A DNA stretch of 32,000 bases. It comes from Candidatus Electrothrix sp. GW3-4. GTDB taxonomy: Bacteria > Desulfobacterota > Desulfobulbia > Desulfobulbales > Desulfobulbaceae. Made by a program: the position numbers and the translations under genes. The stretch is from contig NZ_CP147990.1 of NCBI RefSeq assembly GCF_037902255.1, forward strand, positions 990,001 through 1,022,000. The letters are read 5' to 3'. This document shows, one piece after another, positions 740 to 14,872 of this stretch. Position 1 is the stretch's first letter, and each line of letters opens with the position of its first letter. Under the pieces are notes generated by a model. The model made no database searches. It had not been told where the DNA came from and saw only the letters and a list, made by a program, of their open reading frames with translations.

Positions 740-1699
740 TTGAACCAACATCGCCTTATGTTTTCTCTCGTACCTCAAGTGCCCGTCCCCGATAACGCGA
801 GCAATATTTTCGGAAATAAATTTCTTCGTCGCCCTGAGTTAGCAACTTTCGATCGACTACAAATCGTTTATGAAGCGTATTGCGCTAAAATTTTCGGTCT
901 ATGGGGCACGGTAACCGCATTATCGAAATATTACAATGTTTCCAGGACGTTTATCTATGACACCTTGGCGGTTTTCGAGGAAATTGTTGAACTTGCGCTC
1001 GGGCCGCCCGTTCAACCTGCCGATACTGAAAACAAAAGAGAAGCTGTTGAAATGATAGCTTCATTACGACTTGAGGGGAAATGCGGTATCGGATCTATTG
1101 TGGCGATAATGAACCGCATCGGCCTACGCTTCTCATCTCAAGGTACTGTTAGCACATATTTAAATCATATAGGCTCGCTTGTTCCCCCTGAGCTGAGGCT
1201 TGAAGACAATGATTTGCGGGTTGTCTTTCTGAGCGATGAAATCTTTTCCGGCGGTGTACCTATTCTAATCACTGTCGATCCGATCAGCTCCGCGATTTTA
1301 AAGATAGAACTCGCCGAAAAACGACGTGCTGAAGAATGGAAAAAGCATTGGATCTGCCTTGAAAATAATGGAATTGAGGCGATTTATCTCGTCACCGATG
1401 AAGGATCCGGGCTGTGCGCGGCTCACGATGAACTTTTTTCAGGTGTCATCATGAGGCAGCCAGACACTTTTCACGCTGTTGCATATCGTCTCGGAAGTCG
1501 GTTGGAACAACTAGAAAAATCGGCTTATAAAGCTATTACGGAGGAGTATAACCGCGAAGGAAAAATTGCTTCTGCACGAACGAAGGCGGTTATCCGCAAA
1601 CGAACCGAACTCTATGAAAAAGCACGCAGCGAAGCGCGGAAGGCCGTGGCGCTGTATGATAACTTTTTTATCTATACCGATGTATTATCAATGAATTGA
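740..1699 (+). CDS. Transposase, N-terminal part (upstream frame); family not assignable by eye
   Basis: This is a 319-aa ORF inside the IS. It contains an LSDEIFSGGVPILITVDPISS segment that resembles a first catalytic-Asp region. An ATG alternative start lies at 758. The frame ends 30 nt after a T6 run at 1664-1669, where the downstream frame takes over. Confidence 0.7.
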   Translation: MNQHRLMFSLVPQVPVPDNASNIFGNKFLRRPELATFDRLQIVYEAYCAKIFGLWGTVTALSKYYNVSRTFIYDTLAVFEEIVELALGPPVQPADTENKREAVEMIASLRLEGKCGIGSIVAIMNRIGLRFSSQGTVSTYLNHIGSLVPPELRLEDNDLRVVFLSDEIFSGGVPILITVDPISSAILKIELAEKRRAEEWKKHWICLENNGIEAIYLVTDEGSGLCAAHDELFSGVIMRQPDTFHAVAYRLGSRLEQLEKSAYKAITEEYNREGKIASARTKAVIRKRTELYEKARSEARKAVALYDNFFIYTDVLSMN

Positions 1700-2346
1700 A
1701 CCCGTTCTGCTGCGACGGCCAACTGCGGAATCGTCAGCAGGCGGAAGGCAACATTCAGGCAGCTCTTGAGATGATTGAAACTCTCGGCAATGAAAAAATC
1801 AACAAAGCAATCGACGGAATAAAAAATATCCTGCCGAATCTTCTGAATTATTTCGTTGTAGCCCTCGAGGTCAGGGAAGAACTCGAAAAATTGCCGATCA
1901 ATCATAACGCGCTGTCGTCGCTCTGTTCGGCATGGCAGCATCATAAAGCAGTGATCAAAGCAAAAAAGGCGGATCGCCGTAAGAGATGCGCGGACAGAGA
2001 ACAGAGGCATCTTGAATTCGCCGTAGGGTATCTTCAGGAAGATTTTGAAATTATCAAAGATCGTGTATACAACGAGTTGGACACAATTGTACAGAGTTCG
2101 GCCATGGTCGAATGTATCAACTCCGTCATTCGTCCGTATCTGAATACCTCACGGGGACAGGTGAACCAGAACACCTTGAATCTGATCGCATTTTATCATA
2201 ATAACAGGCGATACCGTGCGGGAAAACGAGTCAAGAAAACACCGATGGAGATTTTGACGGGTAAAAAGCAGGAAAAAGACTGGACTGAGCTGCTATTTGA
2301 CCTGATTGAGGAAAAAGACCCTCTATTTTTCTCGGCAGCGGCCTGA
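1696..2346 (+). CDS. Transposase, C-terminal part (-1 frame relative to 740..1699; this frame is open from 1663)
   Basis: The C-terminal motif SSAMVECINSVIRPYLNTSRG...NRRYRAGKRVKKTPMEILTG resembles the E-x2-N-x3-R catalytic-Glu region plus tail seen in several DDE transposase families. Joining the two frames at the T-run gives about 535 aa. Confidence 0.7.
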   Translation: MNPFCCDGQLRNRQQAEGNIQAALEMIETLGNEKINKAIDGIKNILPNLLNYFVVALEVREELEKLPINHNALSSLCSAWQHHKAVIKAKKADRRKRCADREQRHLEFAVGYLQEDFEIIKDRVYNELDTIVQSSAMVECINSVIRPYLNTSRGQVNQNTLNLIAFYHNNRRYRAGKRVKKTPMEILTGKKQEKDWTELLFDLIEEKDPLFFSAAA

Positions 2347-2702: not shown

Positions 2703-3155
2703 CTATCCTTCACCACTCCCATTCCCTTTCTTCTCCTTTTTCCGACCCCGCCTAAACGCCTTCATAAAATCCAGCAGGGGCTGTCCCTCTTCGGCAATCT
2801 CCGGATAGGCCTCGGAAAAGTCCCGGATGCGGCGGGTGATGTCGTACAGGCCCTCCATACAGCGGTCCGTGCCCAGCAAACGCTGATAGTAGACCGAGTG
2901 ATAGAGCCGTTCCAGTAGATGCTCCACCGGCTCAAGATGATTGACGTCAGTTTTGGCCTGTTCAAGGGAGGAGCGAATCTCGTCAAGGTTGAGCAGGGTT
3001 CCGTGCTTTTCTGCAAAGCGGATCGCATCGTCAACCACGGTCTGATAACCGGGCAGGGCCCTGTGCAAGGCCTTGACCTGGGACGGATCAGGCGGGGGTG
3101 GGAATTCTACATCCAGGATCTCGGCAATCTGTTCGGTCACAGTTTTTTCCGGCAT
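2703..3155 (-). CDS. Hypothetical, predicted helical cytoplasmic protein (150 aa) with a Lys/Gly-rich tail
   Basis: I take the internal ATG at 3155 because a strong AAGGAG lies 6 nt upstream. The protein reads MPEKTVTEQIAEILDVEF...FMKAFRRGRKKEKKGNGSGEG. The longer 205-aa ORF start has no RBS, and its N-terminus looks like noncoding translation. Confidence 0.6.
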   Translation of the reverse strand: MPEKTVTEQIAEILDVEFPPPPDPSQVKALHRALPGYQTVVDDAIRFAEKHGTLLNLDEIRSSLEQAKTDVNHLEPVEHLLERLYHSVYYQRLLGTDRCMEGLYDITRRIRDFSEAYPEIAEEGQPLLDFMKAFRRGRKKEKKGNGSGEG

Positions 3156-3192
3156 GGCATGCTCCTTGGCAGAATTTATGGGAATGAAATTC

Positions 3193-3221
3193 AGCATATT
3201 TCGGTGCAATACGGCTGTCAA
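3193..3221 (-). promoter_or_regulatory. Sigma70-type promoter for the 2703..3155 gene
   Basis: On the minus strand, TTGACA (3221..3216) is followed by a 17-nt spacer and TATGCT (3198..3193), about 40 nt upstream of the ATG. Confidence 0.5.
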
Positions 3222-3300
3222 GAGAAAAAAGAAGAGGTCGCAGTAATGAACAGAGCGTCCCGCCAGGGACAGCATGAAAAGAGACCGGCGTTGCAACGCC

Positions 3301-3447
3301 GTGCAGGAGATGGATGACAATATCCAATCCGTGGATCAGAAAGTCCACAACCTGGATTTGCTTATCCAATCGTTGGATAAAAAAGTCCAACCTGTGGATT
3401 AAAAAGTCCAGGCCGTGGATTAAAATATCCAGCAAATGGACTTTCTT
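3301..3447. repeat. Seven tandem 21-bp units, each a 15-bp palindrome RTCCA-N5-TGGAY plus a 6-bp linker
   Basis: Units start at 3301, 3322, 3343, 3364, 3385, 3406 and 3427. They read GTGCAggagaTGGAT, ATCCAatccgTGGAT, GTCCAcaaccTGGAT, ATCCAatcgtTGGAT, GTCCAacctgTGGAT, GTCCAggccgTGGAT and ATCCAgcaaaTGGAC. The period is exactly 21 bp. The linkers in the right half are A-tracts (AAAAAA, TAAAAA, TAAAAT). Confidence 0.9.
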
Positions 3448-3618
3448 GTCGAATAATTTGACCTGAAAGAGCAGGTTTTTTCCCGTTATAATGAGGGATT
3501 GCTCACTACTTCCCGCTCCCTACAGGGCTTCCTATCTGAACAGGCCCGATGATGCGCCGGGTTGACTCCGCTCCATGTCTTACCCCGGATGCGGTCTCGC
3601 ATTTTTATCAATTATCTC

Positions 3619-3646
3619 TTGACAAACATGTCGCCCGATTTAATAT
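3619..3646 (+). promoter_or_regulatory. Near-consensus sigma70 promoter of the leuA leader
   Basis: TTGACA (3619-3624) is followed by a 16-nt spacer and TAATAT (3641-3646). The first ATG downstream is the leader-peptide start at 3688. Confidence 0.6.
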
Positions 3647-3687
3647 GGAGAAAACCTGAACAACAACGAAATCAACAAAGATTAAGA

Positions 3688-3774
3688 ATGATTTTATCAG
3701 AACTCCTTTACACCCTTCTTCTCCTACTTGGGCTACACAGCGTGACTGTGGCGGAAGGGCGAGGTTTGTTCTGA
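3688..3774 (+). CDS. Leucine-rich leader peptide (28 aa) of a leuA transcription attenuator
   Basis: The peptide is MILSELLYTLLLLLGLHSVTVAEGRGLF. It has 10 Leu in 28 residues, including five consecutive Leu codons (CTT CTT CTC CTA CTT, 3715-3729). It lies between a promoter and a strong intrinsic terminator, directly upstream of leuA. Confidence 0.7.
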   Translation: MILSELLYTLLLLLGLHSVTVAEGRGLF

Positions 3775-3799
3775 GGAACAGGAATAAGATCGATCCAGC

Positions 3800-3836
3800 A
3801 GCCACGGTTCAGCATTTGAACCGTGGCTTTTTTTTT
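3800..3836 (+). terminator. Intrinsic terminator (the attenuator terminator) upstream of leuA
   Basis: A perfect 11-bp stem joins GCCACGGTTCA (3801-3811) to TGAACCGTGGC (3817-3827). The loop is GCATT, and a T9 run follows at 3828-3836. Confidence 0.9.
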
Positions 3837-3918
3837 GTTTTTTTTTGGAGCTGCTCCTGTGACTCTACAGGGCAGGATGATTCATTGGGTACTTTAACGT
3901 GTACAAGAGGATAAGACC

Positions 3919-5616
3919 ATGCAGGCTGATAAATTGAAGAAGTATCGTCCCTACCCAGCGGTGCCGTTGAACGATCGCACCTGGCCCGATAGGACCATTA
4001 CCGAGGCGCCGCTCTGGTGTTCTGTTGACCTCCGTGATGGCAATCAGGCCCTGCGTCAGCCCATGAACCTGGAGCAGAAGCTGGAGATGTTCCAATTGCT
4101 GGTGGATATCGGCTTCAAGGAGATAGAAGTGGGCTTTCCGGCAGCCTCTCAAGTGGAGTTTGATTTTCTTCGCCTGTTGATCGAAGATAACCTGATCCCG
4201 GAAGATGTGACGGTGCAGGTCCTGACCCAGGCCCGAGAGCATCTGATCCGCAGGAGTTTTGCCGCCCTGCAAGGGGCGCGCAAGGCCATTGTCCATCTCT
4301 ATAACTCCACCTCCACCTTGCAGCGTCAGGTGGTCTTTCGGATGGAGAGAAAAGAGATCATCCAGCTGGGAGTACAGGGGGCAGAGGTTATCCGGGAGGA
4401 GGCTGGGCGCTTTGCCGGTGATATTCGTTATGAATATTCACCAGAGAGCTTTACCGGCACAGAACTTGATTTTGCCCTGGAGATCTGCGAAGCGGTGATG
4501 AAGGTCTGGCAGCCCACCCCGGAGCGGCCCGTGGTCATTAATCTGCCCGCAACCGTGGAAATGGCCACAGCCAATATCTATGCCGATCAGATTGAGTGGT
4601 TTATCCGCAATATGAAGAACCGCGACAGCGCCCTGATCAGTCTCCATGCCCATAATGACCGGGGCAGTGCCGTAGCCGCAACGGAGCTGGCCTTGATGGC
4701 TGGCGCCGACCGCATCGAGGGCACCCTGTTCGGCAATGGCGAGCGCACCGGCAATGTGGATATCGTTACCCTGGCCCTGAATATGTTTAGTCAGGGCGTG
4801 GATCCAAAACTGGATCTCTCCAATATCAATCGGGTGGTAAACGTGTATAAACGCTGCACGGATCTGCCGGTCCACCCTCGTCATCCCTATGCAGGTGACC
4901 TGGTCTACACCGCTTTTTCCGGTTCTCATCAGGATGCCATCAGCAAGGGCATGGATGCGGTGGCTGACGATGCCTCCGGCGTCTGGGCCGTGCCCTATCT
5001 GCCCATTGATCCGGAAGATGTGGGCCGCAGCTATGAGTCCATCATCTGTATTAATAGCCAGTCCGGCAAGGGTGGGGCTGCCTATATCATGGATCGCCAA
5101 TTTGGCTTTAAGCTGCCCAAGGCCATGCAGCCCGGCTTTGGCCGGGTGGTGCAGCAAGAAACAGAAAAGGTTGGCAGTGAATTATCCAATAGGGCCGTGT
5201 ATGGTGTTTTTGAGCGGGACTATCTGCGTGAGGAAGGCTATTATCGACTCAAGGAGTTCAACGTGGTGAAACGCCATATTGACCAGGAGGAAGAGGGATC
5301 TACCGCCACCATTGAGGCCATTGTTGTTGTTGGTGGAGAAGAGCAACAGCTCCAGGGAGATGGCAATGGTCCGCTGGATGCCATGTGTTCTGCTCTGAAT
5401 GGGCAGCCCGACCTGGATTTTATCCTGACCTCCTATGATGAGCATTCCCTGACCGAAGGGGCCTCCTCTAAGGCGGTCACCTATATCGAGCTCATGGACA
5501 GGCGGGAAAACGGCAGCCGGGAAAGTTGGTGGGGTGCAGGTATGGATACGGATATTATCGTGTCCTCGGTCAAGGCCTTACTCAGCGCAGTCAATCGGAT
5601 GCACGCAGGTCGATGA
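3919..5616 (+). CDS. leuA: 2-isopropylmalate synthase, long (actinobacterial-type) form
   Basis: The 565-aa protein begins ...RTWPDRTITEAPLWCSVDLRDGNQAL and contains HAHNDRGSAVA and GNGERTGN motifs plus a C-terminal regulatory domain. AAGAGGA serves as RBS. Confidence 0.95.
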   Translation: MQADKLKKYRPYPAVPLNDRTWPDRTITEAPLWCSVDLRDGNQALRQPMNLEQKLEMFQLLVDIGFKEIEVGFPAASQVEFDFLRLLIEDNLIPEDVTVQVLTQAREHLIRRSFAALQGARKAIVHLYNSTSTLQRQVVFRMERKEIIQLGVQGAEVIREEAGRFAGDIRYEYSPESFTGTELDFALEICEAVMKVWQPTPERPVVINLPATVEMATANIYADQIEWFIRNMKNRDSALISLHAHNDRGSAVAATELALMAGADRIEGTLFGNGERTGNVDIVTLALNMFSQGVDPKLDLSNINRVVNVYKRCTDLPVHPRHPYAGDLVYTAFSGSHQDAISKGMDAVADDASGVWAVPYLPIDPEDVGRSYESIICINSQSGKGGAAYIMDRQFGFKLPKAMQPGFGRVVQQETEKVGSELSNRAVYGVFERDYLREEGYYRLKEFNVVKRHIDQEEEGSTATIEAIVVVGGEEQQLQGDGNGPLDAMCSALNGQPDLDFILTSYDEHSLTEGASSKAVTYIELMDRRENGSRESWWGAGMDTDIIVSSVKALLSAVNRMHAGR

Positions 5617-5642: not shown

Positions 5643-6137
5643 ATGATGAGAAAAAGAGGAACTACCGTAGGAAAGAGAGGTGTTTTGCTGACTGCTTTAC
5701 TCATGGCAACGGCAGCCCAGGCCGAGACCGTGGGTGAGGTCAGCACCACCTTTAAGCTCATCGGGGCTAATGATAAGATCGTGATTGAGGCCTTTGATGA
5801 CCCGGATATCAGTGGGGCAACCTGCTACCTCAGTCGGGCCAAGACCGGTGGTATCAAGGGCACCGTGGGCCTGGCTGAAGACAAATCCGATGCCTCCCTT
5901 GCCTGTCGCCAGACCGGGCCCATCACCCTGCCTGAGGATGTGCGCAACGGCAAGGACGACGGGGAGCAGGTCTTTCGCAAATCCACCTCCATTCTCTTTA
6001 AGAAGATGCAGGTGGTACGCTTTTATGATCCCAAACGCAATACCCTTATCTATCTGACCTATTCGGATAAGCTTATTGATGGTTCACCCAAGAACTCGAT
6101 TTCCACCATCGTGATCAGACCTTGGGGGCAGAAGTAG
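5643..6137 (+). CDS. creA: CreA family periplasmic protein
   Basis: A signal peptide is followed by GEVSTTFKLIGANDKIVIEAFDDPDISGATCYLSRAKTGGIKG...VVRFYDPKRNTLIYLTYSDKLIDGSPKNSIS, which closely resembles E. coli CreA as I recall it. The start may be the second ATG at 5646, which has better SD spacing. Confidence 0.85.
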   Translation: MMRKRGTTVGKRGVLLTALLMATAAQAETVGEVSTTFKLIGANDKIVIEAFDDPDISGATCYLSRAKTGGIKGTVGLAEDKSDASLACRQTGPITLPEDVRNGKDDGEQVFRKSTSILFKKMQVVRFYDPKRNTLIYLTYSDKLIDGSPKNSISTIVIRPWGQK

Positions 6138-6166
6138 AACGAGAAGCAGAACGAGAAGTAGAACTA
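6131..6166 (+). repeat. Three tandem 12-bp purine-rich repeats
   Basis: The units GAAGTAGAACGA, GAAGCAGAACGA and GAAGTAGAACTA overlap the creA stop codon and end 11 nt before ATG 6178. Confidence 0.85.
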
Positions 6167-12419: not shown

Positions 12420-14872
12420 ATGAAATTCACCCTCAGCTGGCTTGGTAATTATATCTCTCTTGACGGTCTGACTCCTGATCAGCTGGCAGAACGCCTGACC
12501 ATGCTTGGCCTGGAAGTTGATGCGGTAGAGGAACTCTATGTTGGCCTTGACGCCATTCAAACGGCAAAGGTCCTTTCTGTTCAAAAACATCCTAATGCCG
12601 ATCGACTCAGCCTCTGTGAGGTGGAGATCGGTGACGAAACAGTACCTATTGTCTGTGGAGCGAGCAATGTCCGGCCTGGCCTGATAACGGCCATTGCCCG
12701 CCCCGGTGTGAAATTACCTGGCGGGATGAAGATCAAAAAGGCCAAGGTGCGGGGCGAGGTCTCTTTGGGCATGCTCTGCTCCTGGCGAGAGCTGGGCATA
12801 GGCGAGGAACATACCGGTATCATCGAATTGGACTCCGGGCTGGCCTCTGGTCAGTCCCTGGCCGAGGTACTGGCGCTCTCTGACACCATGATTGAGATTG
12901 ATCTCACCCCTAATCGCCCGGACTGTACTGCTGTGCTCGGCATTGCCCGTGAGGTGGCTGGCTTCACCGAGCAAAAGGTGGCTGCGCCAATATCGTCTTT
13001 GCCTGCGCTTGGAGATTCGACTCCCGAGTTTACGGTCAAGATCAGCGAGCCGGAACTCTGCCCCCGCTATGCTGCCCGTAAATTGACCAATGTGACGATC
13101 AAACCCTCTCCCTGGTGGCTGCAACGACAGCTCTTGGCAGTGGGGATGCGGCCAATCAATAACATCGTCGATATTACCAACTTTGTGATGCTGGAGTATG
13201 GACAGCCCCTCCATGCCTTTGATTTTCAGCATCTTGCTGGTAAGACCATTGAGGTCCGTTGTCCTCGAGCTGATGAGAGCATCTTTACCACTCTGGATAA
13301 TACTGAGCGCAAGATAGATCCTGCAATGCTCATGATCTGTGATGCCGAGCAGCCTGTTGCCGTGGCTGGCGTTATGGGGGGCTTCATTCCGAGGTGAGTG
13401 AGGAGACCACAGAGATCCTCCTGGAGTCTGCCTGTTTTGATCCGGTTTCTGTCCGTCGGACTGCCCGTAATCTCAACCTCTCCACCGAGGCCTCGTACCG
13501 TTTTGAGCGCGGCGTGAACCCGGACGGGGTGACCGAGGCCATGGAGCGGGCTGTGCAGCTCATCTGTGAGCTGGCCGATGCCCAGGTAGAGGGGGGCGTA
13601 GACCACTATCCAGGGAAAAAAGAGCTGCTGCAACTTGATCTGCGGGTTGAGCGGGTCAACACCTTGCTTGGCATTGATCTGACCAGCCAGCAGGTTGCGG
13701 AATACCTGCGCGGTATTGATTTTAGCGTGGCCGATGAAGACAGCGCAATCTTAGCGGTGACTGTGCCACCTTTTCGGGTCGATATTGAGCGTGAGGTTGA
13801 TCTGGTGGAAGAGCTGGCTCGCCTGGAGGGCTATAACGAGATTCCAACGGCGCGCCCGGATATTGCCATGGATTATCCCCAGCGGGATGGTATGCGTCGA
13901 CTCAGACAAGAGACCGCAACTGTTTTTACGGGATCTGGTTTTTACGAGGCAATTAATTACTCCTTTGTTGCAGAAAAGCATTATGATCTGCTCGGGCTCA
14001 GTGACGACGATCCCCGAAGACGATGCGTGCGTCTGCTTAATCCGTTGACAGAGGATCAGGCCGTGATGCGGACCATGCTCCTGCCTGGCATCCTGGAGAA
14101 TATTCGCCGCAATATCAACTTTCAACAAACTGATATTCGTCTTTTTGAGATAGGCAAGGTGTTTGCCCTGCTGGATCCGGCTCAGCAACCGGAAGAGCGC
14201 TATCAGCTTTGTGCCGTTGTTAGTGGGGCTCGTTATCCAGCCTCCTCGCCGCTCTATTTTTCCGAGGAGCAGGCTGATATCTATGACATCAAGGGGGCTG
14301 TTCAACGCCTTTTGCAGACCTTGCGGCTCCAGGGGAAATCAGGGGATATCCTATTTCAGGCTGTTGAAGGCGCAGGTGATGCGTCAGGGGAGAACTATGC
14401 AGATGCCGCTTGTTCCCTCCGCATCATGGATGGTGCGGAGCAACTGGGCCTGATCGCTAAGCTGAGCAAGAAGGCAGCCCAAGGGTTTTCCATCAAGCAG
14501 GATGTCTTTTTTGTTGAGCTGGCATTGGATGCCCTGTTGGATCTGCCAAGAATTGAGAAGGCTTTCAATCCCTTGCCTCGTTATCCCTCTGTCAGGCGTG
14601 ATATTGCCTTGCTGGTGCCGGAAAGCGCGGCTGCCGGAGATCTCTTGCAGGAAATACGAGCACATAAGAAACAGCATGTTGTTTATGCGGATATATTTGA
14701 TGTCTACAGCGGTCAGCCCATTGATGAGGGTATGAAAAGCGTCGCCTTGACTGTTACCTATCGATCCGATGAAAGGACCTTGGATGATGCAACAGTTGAC
14801 GGCTTTCACGAAAAAATAGTAAATGCACTGATGACTCGCTTCGGCGGTCGCTATCGGGAAGGAAAAGAGTAA
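12420..14872 (+). CDS. pheT: Phenylalanine--tRNA ligase beta subunit, reading frame broken by an apparent 1-nt deletion in a G6 run (13376-13381)
   Basis: ORFs 12420..13397 and 13394..14872 together total about 817 aa of PheT. The upstream frame reads ...VAGVMGGFIPR*. The frame shifted by one reads GGLHSEVSEETTEILLESACFDP, which is the conserved continuation. Confidence 0.9.

Follow-up and report, generated by a model that had tools for sequence, protein, structure and literature searches.

A 32,000-nucleotide stretch of the genome of Candidatus Electrothrix sp. GW3-4 (the window), a closed cable-bacterium genome described as Ca. E. antwerpensis (PMC11247825), contains an array of short palindromes upstream of a gene for an orphan protein of 150 amino acids (aa). 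The array comprises six perfect units of the palindrome RTCCA-N5-TGGAY, which start at positions 3322, 3343, 3364, 3385, 3406, and 3427 and follow one another with an exact period of 21 bp (3322-3447); Tandem Repeats Finder also gave a 21-bp period. The six units are flanked by two degenerate units that lie in phase with them, one starting at 3301, with a single arm mismatch (GTGCA), and the other at 3448. The period given in the original prediction is thus exact, but its seven units become six perfect ones, because the unit at 3301 carries the mismatch, and an eighth, degenerate unit is added at 3448. No perfect TCCA-N5-TGGA was found elsewhere in the window, and the chance expectation for RTCCA-N5-TGGAY is ~0.6 sites in 153 kb of related sequence.

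Each unit consists of a left arm, a 5-bp core, and a right arm, followed by a linker, and none is assigned to a strand. The promoter-proximal degenerate unit (3301..3321) reads GTGCA-GGAGA-TGGAT with the linker GACAAT. It is followed by unit 1 (3322..3342; ATCCA-ATCCG-TGGAT, linker CAGAAA), unit 2 (3343..3363; GTCCA-CAACC-TGGAT, TTGCTT), unit 3 (3364..3384; ATCCA-ATCGT-TGGAT, AAAAAA), unit 4 (3385..3405; GTCCA-ACCTG-TGGAT, TAAAAA), unit 5 (3406..3426; GTCCA-GGCCG-TGGAT, TAAAAT), and unit 6 (3427..3447; ATCCA-GCAAA-TGGAC, TTTCTT), and the array ends with the distal degenerate unit (3448..3468; GTCGA-ATAAT-TTGAC, CTGAAA). Within a unit, the centres of the two 5-bp half-sites are 10 bp apart, and the half-site of the next unit follows 11 bp further on. 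The array therefore presents 14-16 half-sites of alternating orientation that recur once per helical turn on the same face of the DNA, and its 7-8 units span 147-168 bp. The A-tracts in the linkers of units 3, 4, and 5 (3379-3384, 3401-3405, and 3422-3425, respectively) share one common helical phase, and the AA/TT periodicity at 10.5 bp exceeded that of all 500 of 500 shuffled sequences, which bears out the phased A-tracts proposed earlier. From established knowledge of such tracts, intrinsic curvature of the array DNA is predicted.

The orphan gene, WGN25_04615 (2703..3155, minus strand), encodes a product identical to that annotated under this locus tag in Candidatus Electrothrix sp. GW3-4. 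It is driven by a sigma-70-type promoter on the minus strand (3193..3221), with a TTGACA -35 box (3221..3216) separated by 17 nt from the -10 hexamer TATGCT (3198..3193). A T-tract resembling an UP element (3222..3237; minus strand CTCTTCTTTTTTCTC) lies directly upstream of the -35 box, and a GTCCC-N4-GGGAC palindrome (3256..3269, no strand assigned) is located between promoter and array. A further palindrome, GGCGTTGCAACGCC, is present at 3287-3300 and abuts the array, as originally described, but is not conserved in the orthologous loci. To the right of the array, a second sigma-70 promoter (TTGACA 3619 / TAATAT 3646) is followed by a leader peptide rich in Leu, by a terminator (3800-3828), and by leuA. 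From the array it is 80-226 bp to the -35 box of the orphan gene and 172 bp to the leuA leader promoter (3619-3646), in agreement with the distances first estimated. The extended -35 sequence TCTCTTGACA occurs in both of these divergent promoters (3216-3228 and 3612-3624) and forms a 13-nt inverted repeat with a separation of 383 nt; the T-tract at 3222..3237 likewise pairs with TTATCTCTTGACA of the leuA promoter as inverted repeat I4.

Orthologous loci were collected from three sources, namely a pattern scan of species-representative genomes, a search of a protein collection with the translated array, and the genomic contexts of homologues of the 150-aa protein. The first recovered the syntenic locus of the metagenome-assembled genome (MAG) S24.Bin023 (L113), and the second returned two open reading frames (ORFs) called inside arrays, one in Ca. 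E. scaldis and one in a contig of the European Nucleotide Archive (ENA). The third added E. aestuarii (L201, with the array at the edge of the locus), a Logan contig with eight units (L220), and a decayed copy (L218). The closed genomes of E. scaldis and E. aestuarii have the accessions CP138355 and CP159373, respectively. The same array is thus found in six other sequences of the Electrothrix lineage.

In a four-way alignment, variable columns accounted for 4 of 56 positions in the arms, 18 of 35 in the cores, and 8 of 42 in the linkers (arms versus cores, Fisher p = 2.5e-6), and in the comparison with the more distant L220, for 4 of 64 arm and 19 of 40 core positions. The half-sites are therefore conserved across orthologues with the spacer between them free to change, as expected for an operator array. 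Copy number shifts by whole 21-bp units (7 versus 8); exactly one unit, which follows unit 3 in the orthologues, has been lost in the window or gained in the other genomes. In the L220 comparison, conservation extends beyond the arms in the four promoter-proximal units and is confined to the arms in the distal ones. The core GGAGA of the promoter-proximal degenerate unit is kept in all orthologues including L220, and the core of unit 2 is retained in L220 too. Unit 1 is the same in four orthologues except for the R at position 1 and one linker base (CAGGAA in E. scaldis), and unit 4 has a different core in each lineage (ACCTG, TCAAG, and GATCA). The GTCCC-N4-GGGAC palindrome is kept in the Electrothrix orthologues, E. 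aestuarii among them, and occurs in a weaker form in L220. The arms are under selection at the DNA level: they are kept and the cores are free, units are gained and lost whole, and the coding signal described below is not reproducible, so that the earlier preference for DNA-level over coding selection is upheld. As a separate observation, positions 3321-3640 are 97-100% identical to S24.Bin023 apart from the one-unit indel, and leuA is ~81-88% identical, which suggests a local recombination event between the GW3-4 and S24.Bin023 lineages; E. scaldis is far more diverged than S24.Bin023 over 3450-3600.

The same architecture recurs, with other motifs, in sister lineages. Homologues of the 150-aa gene follow aspS in L219 and a pyruvate:ferredoxin oxidoreductase gene in Electronema (L204, L216, L217, and L237), and the homologue in L236 has yet another location. 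A 21-bp-phased array precedes these homologues, with top autocorrelation lags of 21, 42, and 63 in most; at L236, lag 42 alone is near the top. The array motif is ATYGA-N5-TCRAT in L219, and the left arm of the distal degenerate unit in the window is of this TCGA type. Electronema L204, L216, and L217 carry TTTCCTCATAGG in both orientations, and L237 and L236 carry further variants. A TTGACA -35 box with a -10-like hexamer 17 nt downstream is also present before the homologues in seven further lineages, and a T-run precedes TTGACA at every homologous locus. In seven lineages the array ends ~60-80 bp upstream of this T-tract and TTGACA-N17 promoter; in L220 a ~70-bp hairpin insertion separates the two. 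A fixed position relative to a conserved promoter, as an operator array should have, is thus observed. At L219, L216, L217, and L237 the array begins right behind the terminator of the upstream gene, and these arrays therefore probably lie in untranscribed DNA.

The arrays follow the orphan gene rather than leuA. L218 (behind an SBP_bac_5 gene), L220, and E. aestuarii each have an RTCCA-N5-TGGAY array before the orthologous promoter, and the sequence available for them shows no leuA. Conversely, promoter and leader of leuA are retained in L141 (84% nucleotide identity in leuA) and in L122, which have nothing homologous to 3184-3602, and no array was found upstream of leuA in 80 metagenomic relatives. 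No conserved neighbour gene was found beside the module, the downstream genes being mutually unrelated. Because arrays occur without leuA, leuA occurs without an array, and the neighbours of the homologues differ, array, promoter, and 150-aa gene form the unit of inheritance, and the position beside leuA in GW3-4 is incidental. The original prediction had left leuA and the orphan gene as equally plausible targets; the array belongs to the promoter module of the latter, with leuA a neighbour by chance of position. Toxin-antitoxin genes (CopG, RelE, PIN, ParE, YoeB, FitA-like, and UPF0175) adjoin most of the 150-aa homologues (L201, L202, L204, L216-L219, and L237), which suggests that the family sits in variable, island-like regions.

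Most likely, the units form a multi-site protein-binding array before the promoter of a small gene specific to cable bacteria. We favour, with moderate confidence, the view that this array is a cooperative multi-dimer operator on curved DNA that controls the orphan gene, and of the alternatives offered at the outset it is the dense operator for a dimeric regulator that survives, the DnaA or origin cluster and the iteron or centromere being unsupported. In such an operator, the array would regulate the sigma-70 promoter from upstream, between about -115 and -280 from the predicted start. Each 15-bp unit would be the site for one dimer, contacted through half-sites whose centres are one helical turn apart, and the two-turn period would set 7-8 dimers, with 14-16 half-sites, on one face of the A-tract-bent DNA. 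The dimers could then bind cooperatively and build one higher-order complex over ~147-168 bp, either filamentous or wrapped, which would set the activity of the strong promoter 80 bp away. The promoter-proximal, partly degenerate units may serve as lower-affinity extension sites.

Operators that are occupied cooperatively by several dimers have this geometry, as do nucleoprotein complexes in which DNA is wrapped or a filament is formed; comparable systems are the four described next and the lambda O-some, which is taken up further below. The tandem operators of the DeoR-family repressor GlpR in the Escherichia coli glp regulon have half-sites about every 10 bp and adjacent palindromic operators of ~20 bp, to which an oligomeric repressor binds cooperatively on one face. 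However, the glp operators number 2-5 and overlap or flank the promoter, whereas the 7-8 units here lie 80-260 bp upstream; the motif is unrelated and no DeoR-family gene is present. The ARG boxes of ArgR/AhrC are 18-bp palindromes with 3-bp gaps and thus have the same 21-bp centre spacing, with neighbouring dimers on the same face, but there are usually two, they overlap the promoter and have TGAAT/ATTCA half-sites, and neither an ArgR gene nor an arginine-pathway context is found here. The CI wheel of coliphage 186, a heptamer of dimers, also uses palindromic sites about two turns apart, and its seven dimers could hold ~7 x 21 = 147 bp of wrapped DNA, the size of the array; it differs in having three adjacent and distant flanking sites in a phage immunity region, and no CI-like helix-turn-helix (HTH) protein or phage context is seen here. 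In the type II partition systems of R1 and pSK41, parC comprises 10-20-bp repeats in a promoter region, and the small downstream-encoded ParR binds cooperatively, autoregulates, and forms a helical scaffold, but those systems include a gene for the actin-like ATPase ParM and a ribbon-helix-helix (RHH) binder, neither of which was found here. Among operator-like arrays, the present palindrome array is unusually long and exactly phased; it is tied to an orphan gene family, and its motif turns over between lineages.

Several observations weigh against this interpretation. A position at -115 to -280 is a long way upstream for a simple repressor or activator. What follows array and promoter in E. 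scaldis and E. aestuarii is a 3'-end remnant of a gene of the 150-aa family together with inserted genes, and the intact gene is located 1.8-6 kb away, where the sequence before it is different; this remnant junction is also found in S24.Bin023 and the ENA contig, ahead of the contig ends. A paralogue of the 150-aa gene in GW3-4 has no array. The Electronema units are asymmetric 12-mers instead of palindromes, and one common binding mode for all lineages is not guaranteed. Finally, the 150-aa protein has no recognisable DNA-binding domain, with no match in Pfam, NCBIfam, PHROG, or PADLOC and none to a sequence or fold in the PDB. The coding signals taken up below count on the same side.

The rearrangement junction itself falls at window positions 3184/3185, near where transcription from the minus-strand promoter is predicted to begin. 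The remnant found there in S24.Bin023, E. scaldis, E. aestuarii, and the ENA contig is ~55 bp long and homologous to positions 2705-2756; in GW3-4 and L218 the intact gene directly follows the promoter.

The product of the orphan gene is the leading and most economical candidate for the binder, acting as an autoregulator, since the module is self-contained, the motif changes along with the gene, and the family looks nucleic-acid-associated; this evidence is circumstantial. In an AlphaFold model (predicted local distance difference test score, pLDDT, 85) the protein is all-helical; one of its helices has 56 residues, and its basic tail is disordered. No RHH or HTH match was found in the protein. 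A profile search with the family returned 99 cluster representatives, of which the longer members (P0070, P0071, P0077, P0084, P0095, and P0099) have Lys/Ala/Pro-rich, histone-H1-like tails at the N or C terminus; P0095 also shows a weak match to a DksA/TraR-type zinc finger and a C-terminal hydrophobic stretch. A bolder proposal, tentative and on balance doubtful, is that the protein represents a novel type of DNA-binding protein, in which a basic tail is combined with a long coiled-coil helix, and that it polymerises as 7-8 dimers on its own curved array of nucleosome length (147-168 bp). The module would then be a self-contained autoregulatory unit whose recognition sequence has been re-specified repeatedly in the evolution of cable bacteria (RTCCA/TGGAY, ATYGA/TCRAT, TTTCCTCATAGG, and others).

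Among the alternatives to an operator, the one that survives best, though it is itself unlikely, is a structural promoter element with no dedicated regulator, in which curved DNA with phased A/T-tracts stimulates or insulates the promoter or is bound by a general nucleoid protein, for example IHF, HU, or a Fis-like factor. The helical phasing of the A/T-tracts and the placement of arrays between an upstream terminator and the promoter are consistent with it, and the features common to all lineages are precisely the 21-bp phasing and the A/T-rich linkers, the motif sequence being different. However, the TCCA/TGGA arms in Electrothrix, which contain G+C, are nearly invariant while ~50% of core positions change, which points to sequence-specific reading and not to curvature alone, and curvature does not need palindromic arms.

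It is also improbable that the array is a gene for a small heptad-repeat protein on the strand of the orphan gene, with the pattern I-[HQ]-x-[LV]-D-x-x, the palindrome being a by-product of the codons ATC-CAN...NTG-GAY. A gene has been called inside the array in two records, among them E. scaldis, where it is annotated as a hypothetical protein of 70 aa (SD837_16840). The co-directional frame is open over the array in GW3-4, S24.Bin023, E. scaldis, L219, and L220, and the arms of L219 (ATC GAA..TTC GAT) still give I-E-x-F-D. Between S24.Bin023 and E. scaldis, the ratio of non-synonymous to synonymous differences (pN/pS) was 0.41 in the co-directional frame, one of six (null median 0.71, nominal P = 0.026). 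This result is non-significant once corrected for six frames and was not replicated with L220, pN/pS not being under the null in two of the three comparisons (0.45 versus a null of 0.58, P = 0.16; 0.74 versus 0.74, P = 0.49). The open frame in several genomes can be explained by T-rich linkers on the strand of the gene, which avoid stop codons; with the arms held fixed, it was open by chance in 22% of permutations. Moreover, stops interrupt it in L218 and in the ENA contig, no frame is open in L236, and a 2-bp indel alters the C-terminus. The palindrome reads I/V-Q/H-x-L/V/M-D on both strands. Third positions are not enriched among the variable columns (11, 7, and 13 in the three phases), the Ile/Val codon is NTC in 27 of 27 cases, and neither a conserved start codon nor a ribosome-binding site was found. 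A conserved open frame with start signals and a synonymous excess, by which a protein-coding heptad repeat would be recognised, is not seen in the arrays compared. The Electronema arrays would yield unrelated peptides (FLIGxxx) even though the neighbouring protein is ~60% identical, several arrays start straight after the terminator of an upstream gene, and the window ORFs across the array are absent from a collection of 15 billion proteins (exact look-up). We regard the array as non-coding DNA and the two database ORFs as artefacts, leaving a small residual chance of a translated peptide, and at least two gene calls inside the array, SD837_16840 and the 70-aa ORF of the ENA contig, need correction.

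It is very unlikely that the array is what remains of the iterons or partition centromere of a plasmid, phage, or mobile element that became integrated. With 6-8 units in two-turn phasing, the array is reminiscent of plasmid iterons, lambda-type origin repeats, and parC centromeres. The lambda O-some repeats and the seven 22-bp iterons of R6K comprise 4-7 units with a period of ~21-23 bp, A-rich spacers, and bending, and the lambda units are palindromic. The segment is polymorphic for presence and absence, low-GC ORFs that could not be annotated lie nearby, toxin-antitoxin genes adjoin most homologues, and some Bacteroidales arrays of the same geometry stand beside VapE-like primase genes. Lambda and iteron arrays, however, are situated in or beside an initiator gene with an AT-rich unwinding region, and plasmid iterons are direct repeats, whereas the units here are palindromes whose likeness to direct repeats is limited to their arms. 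There is no initiator gene here; neither the window ORFs nor the homologous loci examined gave a match to a Rep, primase, or helicase family, and neither a ParA, ParM, or TubZ NTPase gene nor one for a centromere-binding protein with an RHH or HTH domain was found near the array at any locus. The fixed position of the array relative to a chromosomal promoter in many lineages also argues against a relic, and this part of the original prediction is not supported.

Still less probable is control of leuA, in which a nucleoprotein complex, for instance of the Lrp or ArgR type, would act on the leu leader promoter over a distance of 172 bp. The array is upstream of that promoter in four genomes, and the extended -35 sequence TCTCTTGACA is common to both divergent promoters. 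Nevertheless, the array is missing from L141 and L122, where leuA retains its promoter, leader peptide, and attenuator, the loci in L218, L220, L219, and Electronema have arrays and no leuA, and the 150 bp between array and leuA promoter are not conserved as part of the module.

The proposal of a DnaA-titrating (datA-like) or origin-like cluster is largely refuted: although the arms contain the TCCA core of TTATCCACA, the sites are dense, as they are in the DnaA-box clusters of oriC and datA, and matches to the box reach 8/9 in one half-site and 7/9 in two, only 1 of 14 half-sites, TGTGGATTA at 3393-3401 in unit 4, is confirmed as lying within one mismatch of TTATCCACA, the other 13 have just TCCA in common with it, the bases past TCCA are not conserved and miss the 9-mer consensus, the arms in sister lineages (ATCGA or TTTCCTCATAGG) are not DnaA boxes, the GC skew is positive in all sixteen 2-kb bins with no switch, and the window contains no dnaA, dnaN, or other origin context, housekeeping genes (thrS-rplT-pheST-ihfA-like, frr, dxr, and radA) standing there instead. 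The whole window contains 17 sites within one mismatch of TTATCCACA, with 6.5 expected and none of 100 shuffles reaching 17; these sites are dispersed and not clustered.

Other candidate explanations for the intergenic region were rejected. A small RNA gene at 3495-3620 behind TATAAT (3487-3492) has no Rfam match and no excess fold stability (3495-3625, z = -0.1); its -10 box, hairpins, and 'terminator' are not kept in E. scaldis, and the segment is absent from the module of L218. The stretch is 98-100% identical to the MAG S24.Bin023, and no Rfam family matched 3150-3950 at the gathering score. No terminal inverted repeats like those of a miniature inverted-repeat transposable element (MITE) or another mobile element surround 3184-3602, the sole long inverted repeat being that of the two -35 regions. 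A single cross-phylum family with the TCCA-N5-TGGA motif and 21-bp period was likewise abandoned, since the matches are mixed, and no homology with the cable-bacterial array is claimed. In the scan of the genome collection, the three-unit pattern occurred at >120 loci in many phyla, many of them perfect tandem repeats that are probably coding. In a control scan of viral contigs, the pattern gave 9 matches, a control palindrome 7, and a 22-bp period 6, with no special enrichment. A literature search for the motif strings returned nothing, and nothing relevant was found on repeats in cable bacteria.

Two kinds of Bacteroidales elements were noted in the course of these scans. One consists of 3-4 TTCCA-N5-TGGAA units with a 21-bp period, located between DUF6078 and VapE/BT4734-like primase-helicase genes (L021:1269-1344, L023:2858-2933, L053:4626-4680, and L116:2622-2676) and ending 22-29 bp before the ATG of the primase-helicase; these arrays could be the operator or origin of an integrated element. 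The other is a multi-copy element of ~230 bp in the Bacteroidales MAGs Alloprevotella bin49 and B53 bin.126 (L001:7510-7810 and ~18 further loci: L008, L032, L033, L036, L037, L041, L046, L058, L065, L072, L081-L083, L086, L087, L108, L110, and L120). Inverted repeats, GCGCTATATGGCA / GCCATATAGYGGC, form its ends; it also contains a hairpin resembling a terminator (GCGGACG-N7-CGTCCGC-TTTT) and, in its centre, an array of three copies of ATCCATCCCATGGAT, and looks MITE-like.

The remainder of the window contains creA, tRNA-Val, thrS, rplT, pheS, pheT, an IHF/HU-like gene, frr, uppS, cdsA, dxr, and radA. The leader region of leuA is a classical leu attenuator (3689-3828), in which the leader peptide MILSELLYTLLLLLGLHSVTVAEGRGLF is followed by a terminator with a 13-bp stem; it is kept in all relatives examined. 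A 12-bp tandem repeat, AGAAGTAGAACG, is present in 2.9 copies at 6130-6164, just past creA. For the insertion sequence (IS) reported 800 bp from the array (ORFs 740..1699 and 1696..2346), a transposase could not be substantiated, with no match in Pfam, NCBIfam, or PHROG and only weak tblastn matches to hypothetical proteins on Acaryochloris plasmids. Positions 1-2400 have a G+C content of 0.40 versus ~0.51 and are probably foreign DNA; the status of these ORFs as an IS is unproven. They are a frameshifted pair, as is pheT, which is split into the overlapping ORFs 12420..13397 and 13394..14872. The GW3-4 Nanopore assembly was heavily polished against gene fragmentation (PMC11247825), and both pairs may be residual assembly errors.

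Cable bacteria cannot be grown in pure culture, and gene regulation in them is almost wholly uncharted. The locus described here provides a sharply defined cis-element, with eight phased palindromes of clear consensus, one strong promoter, and one lineage-specific gene, that is open to in vitro tests, and the analysis removes the false lead of an origin or DnaA cluster. The recurrence of one architecture with differing recognition sequences constitutes a natural series for the study of regulator and operator co-evolution. If the orphan protein is the binder, it would represent a new DNA-binding family, whose distant members carry histone-like tails.

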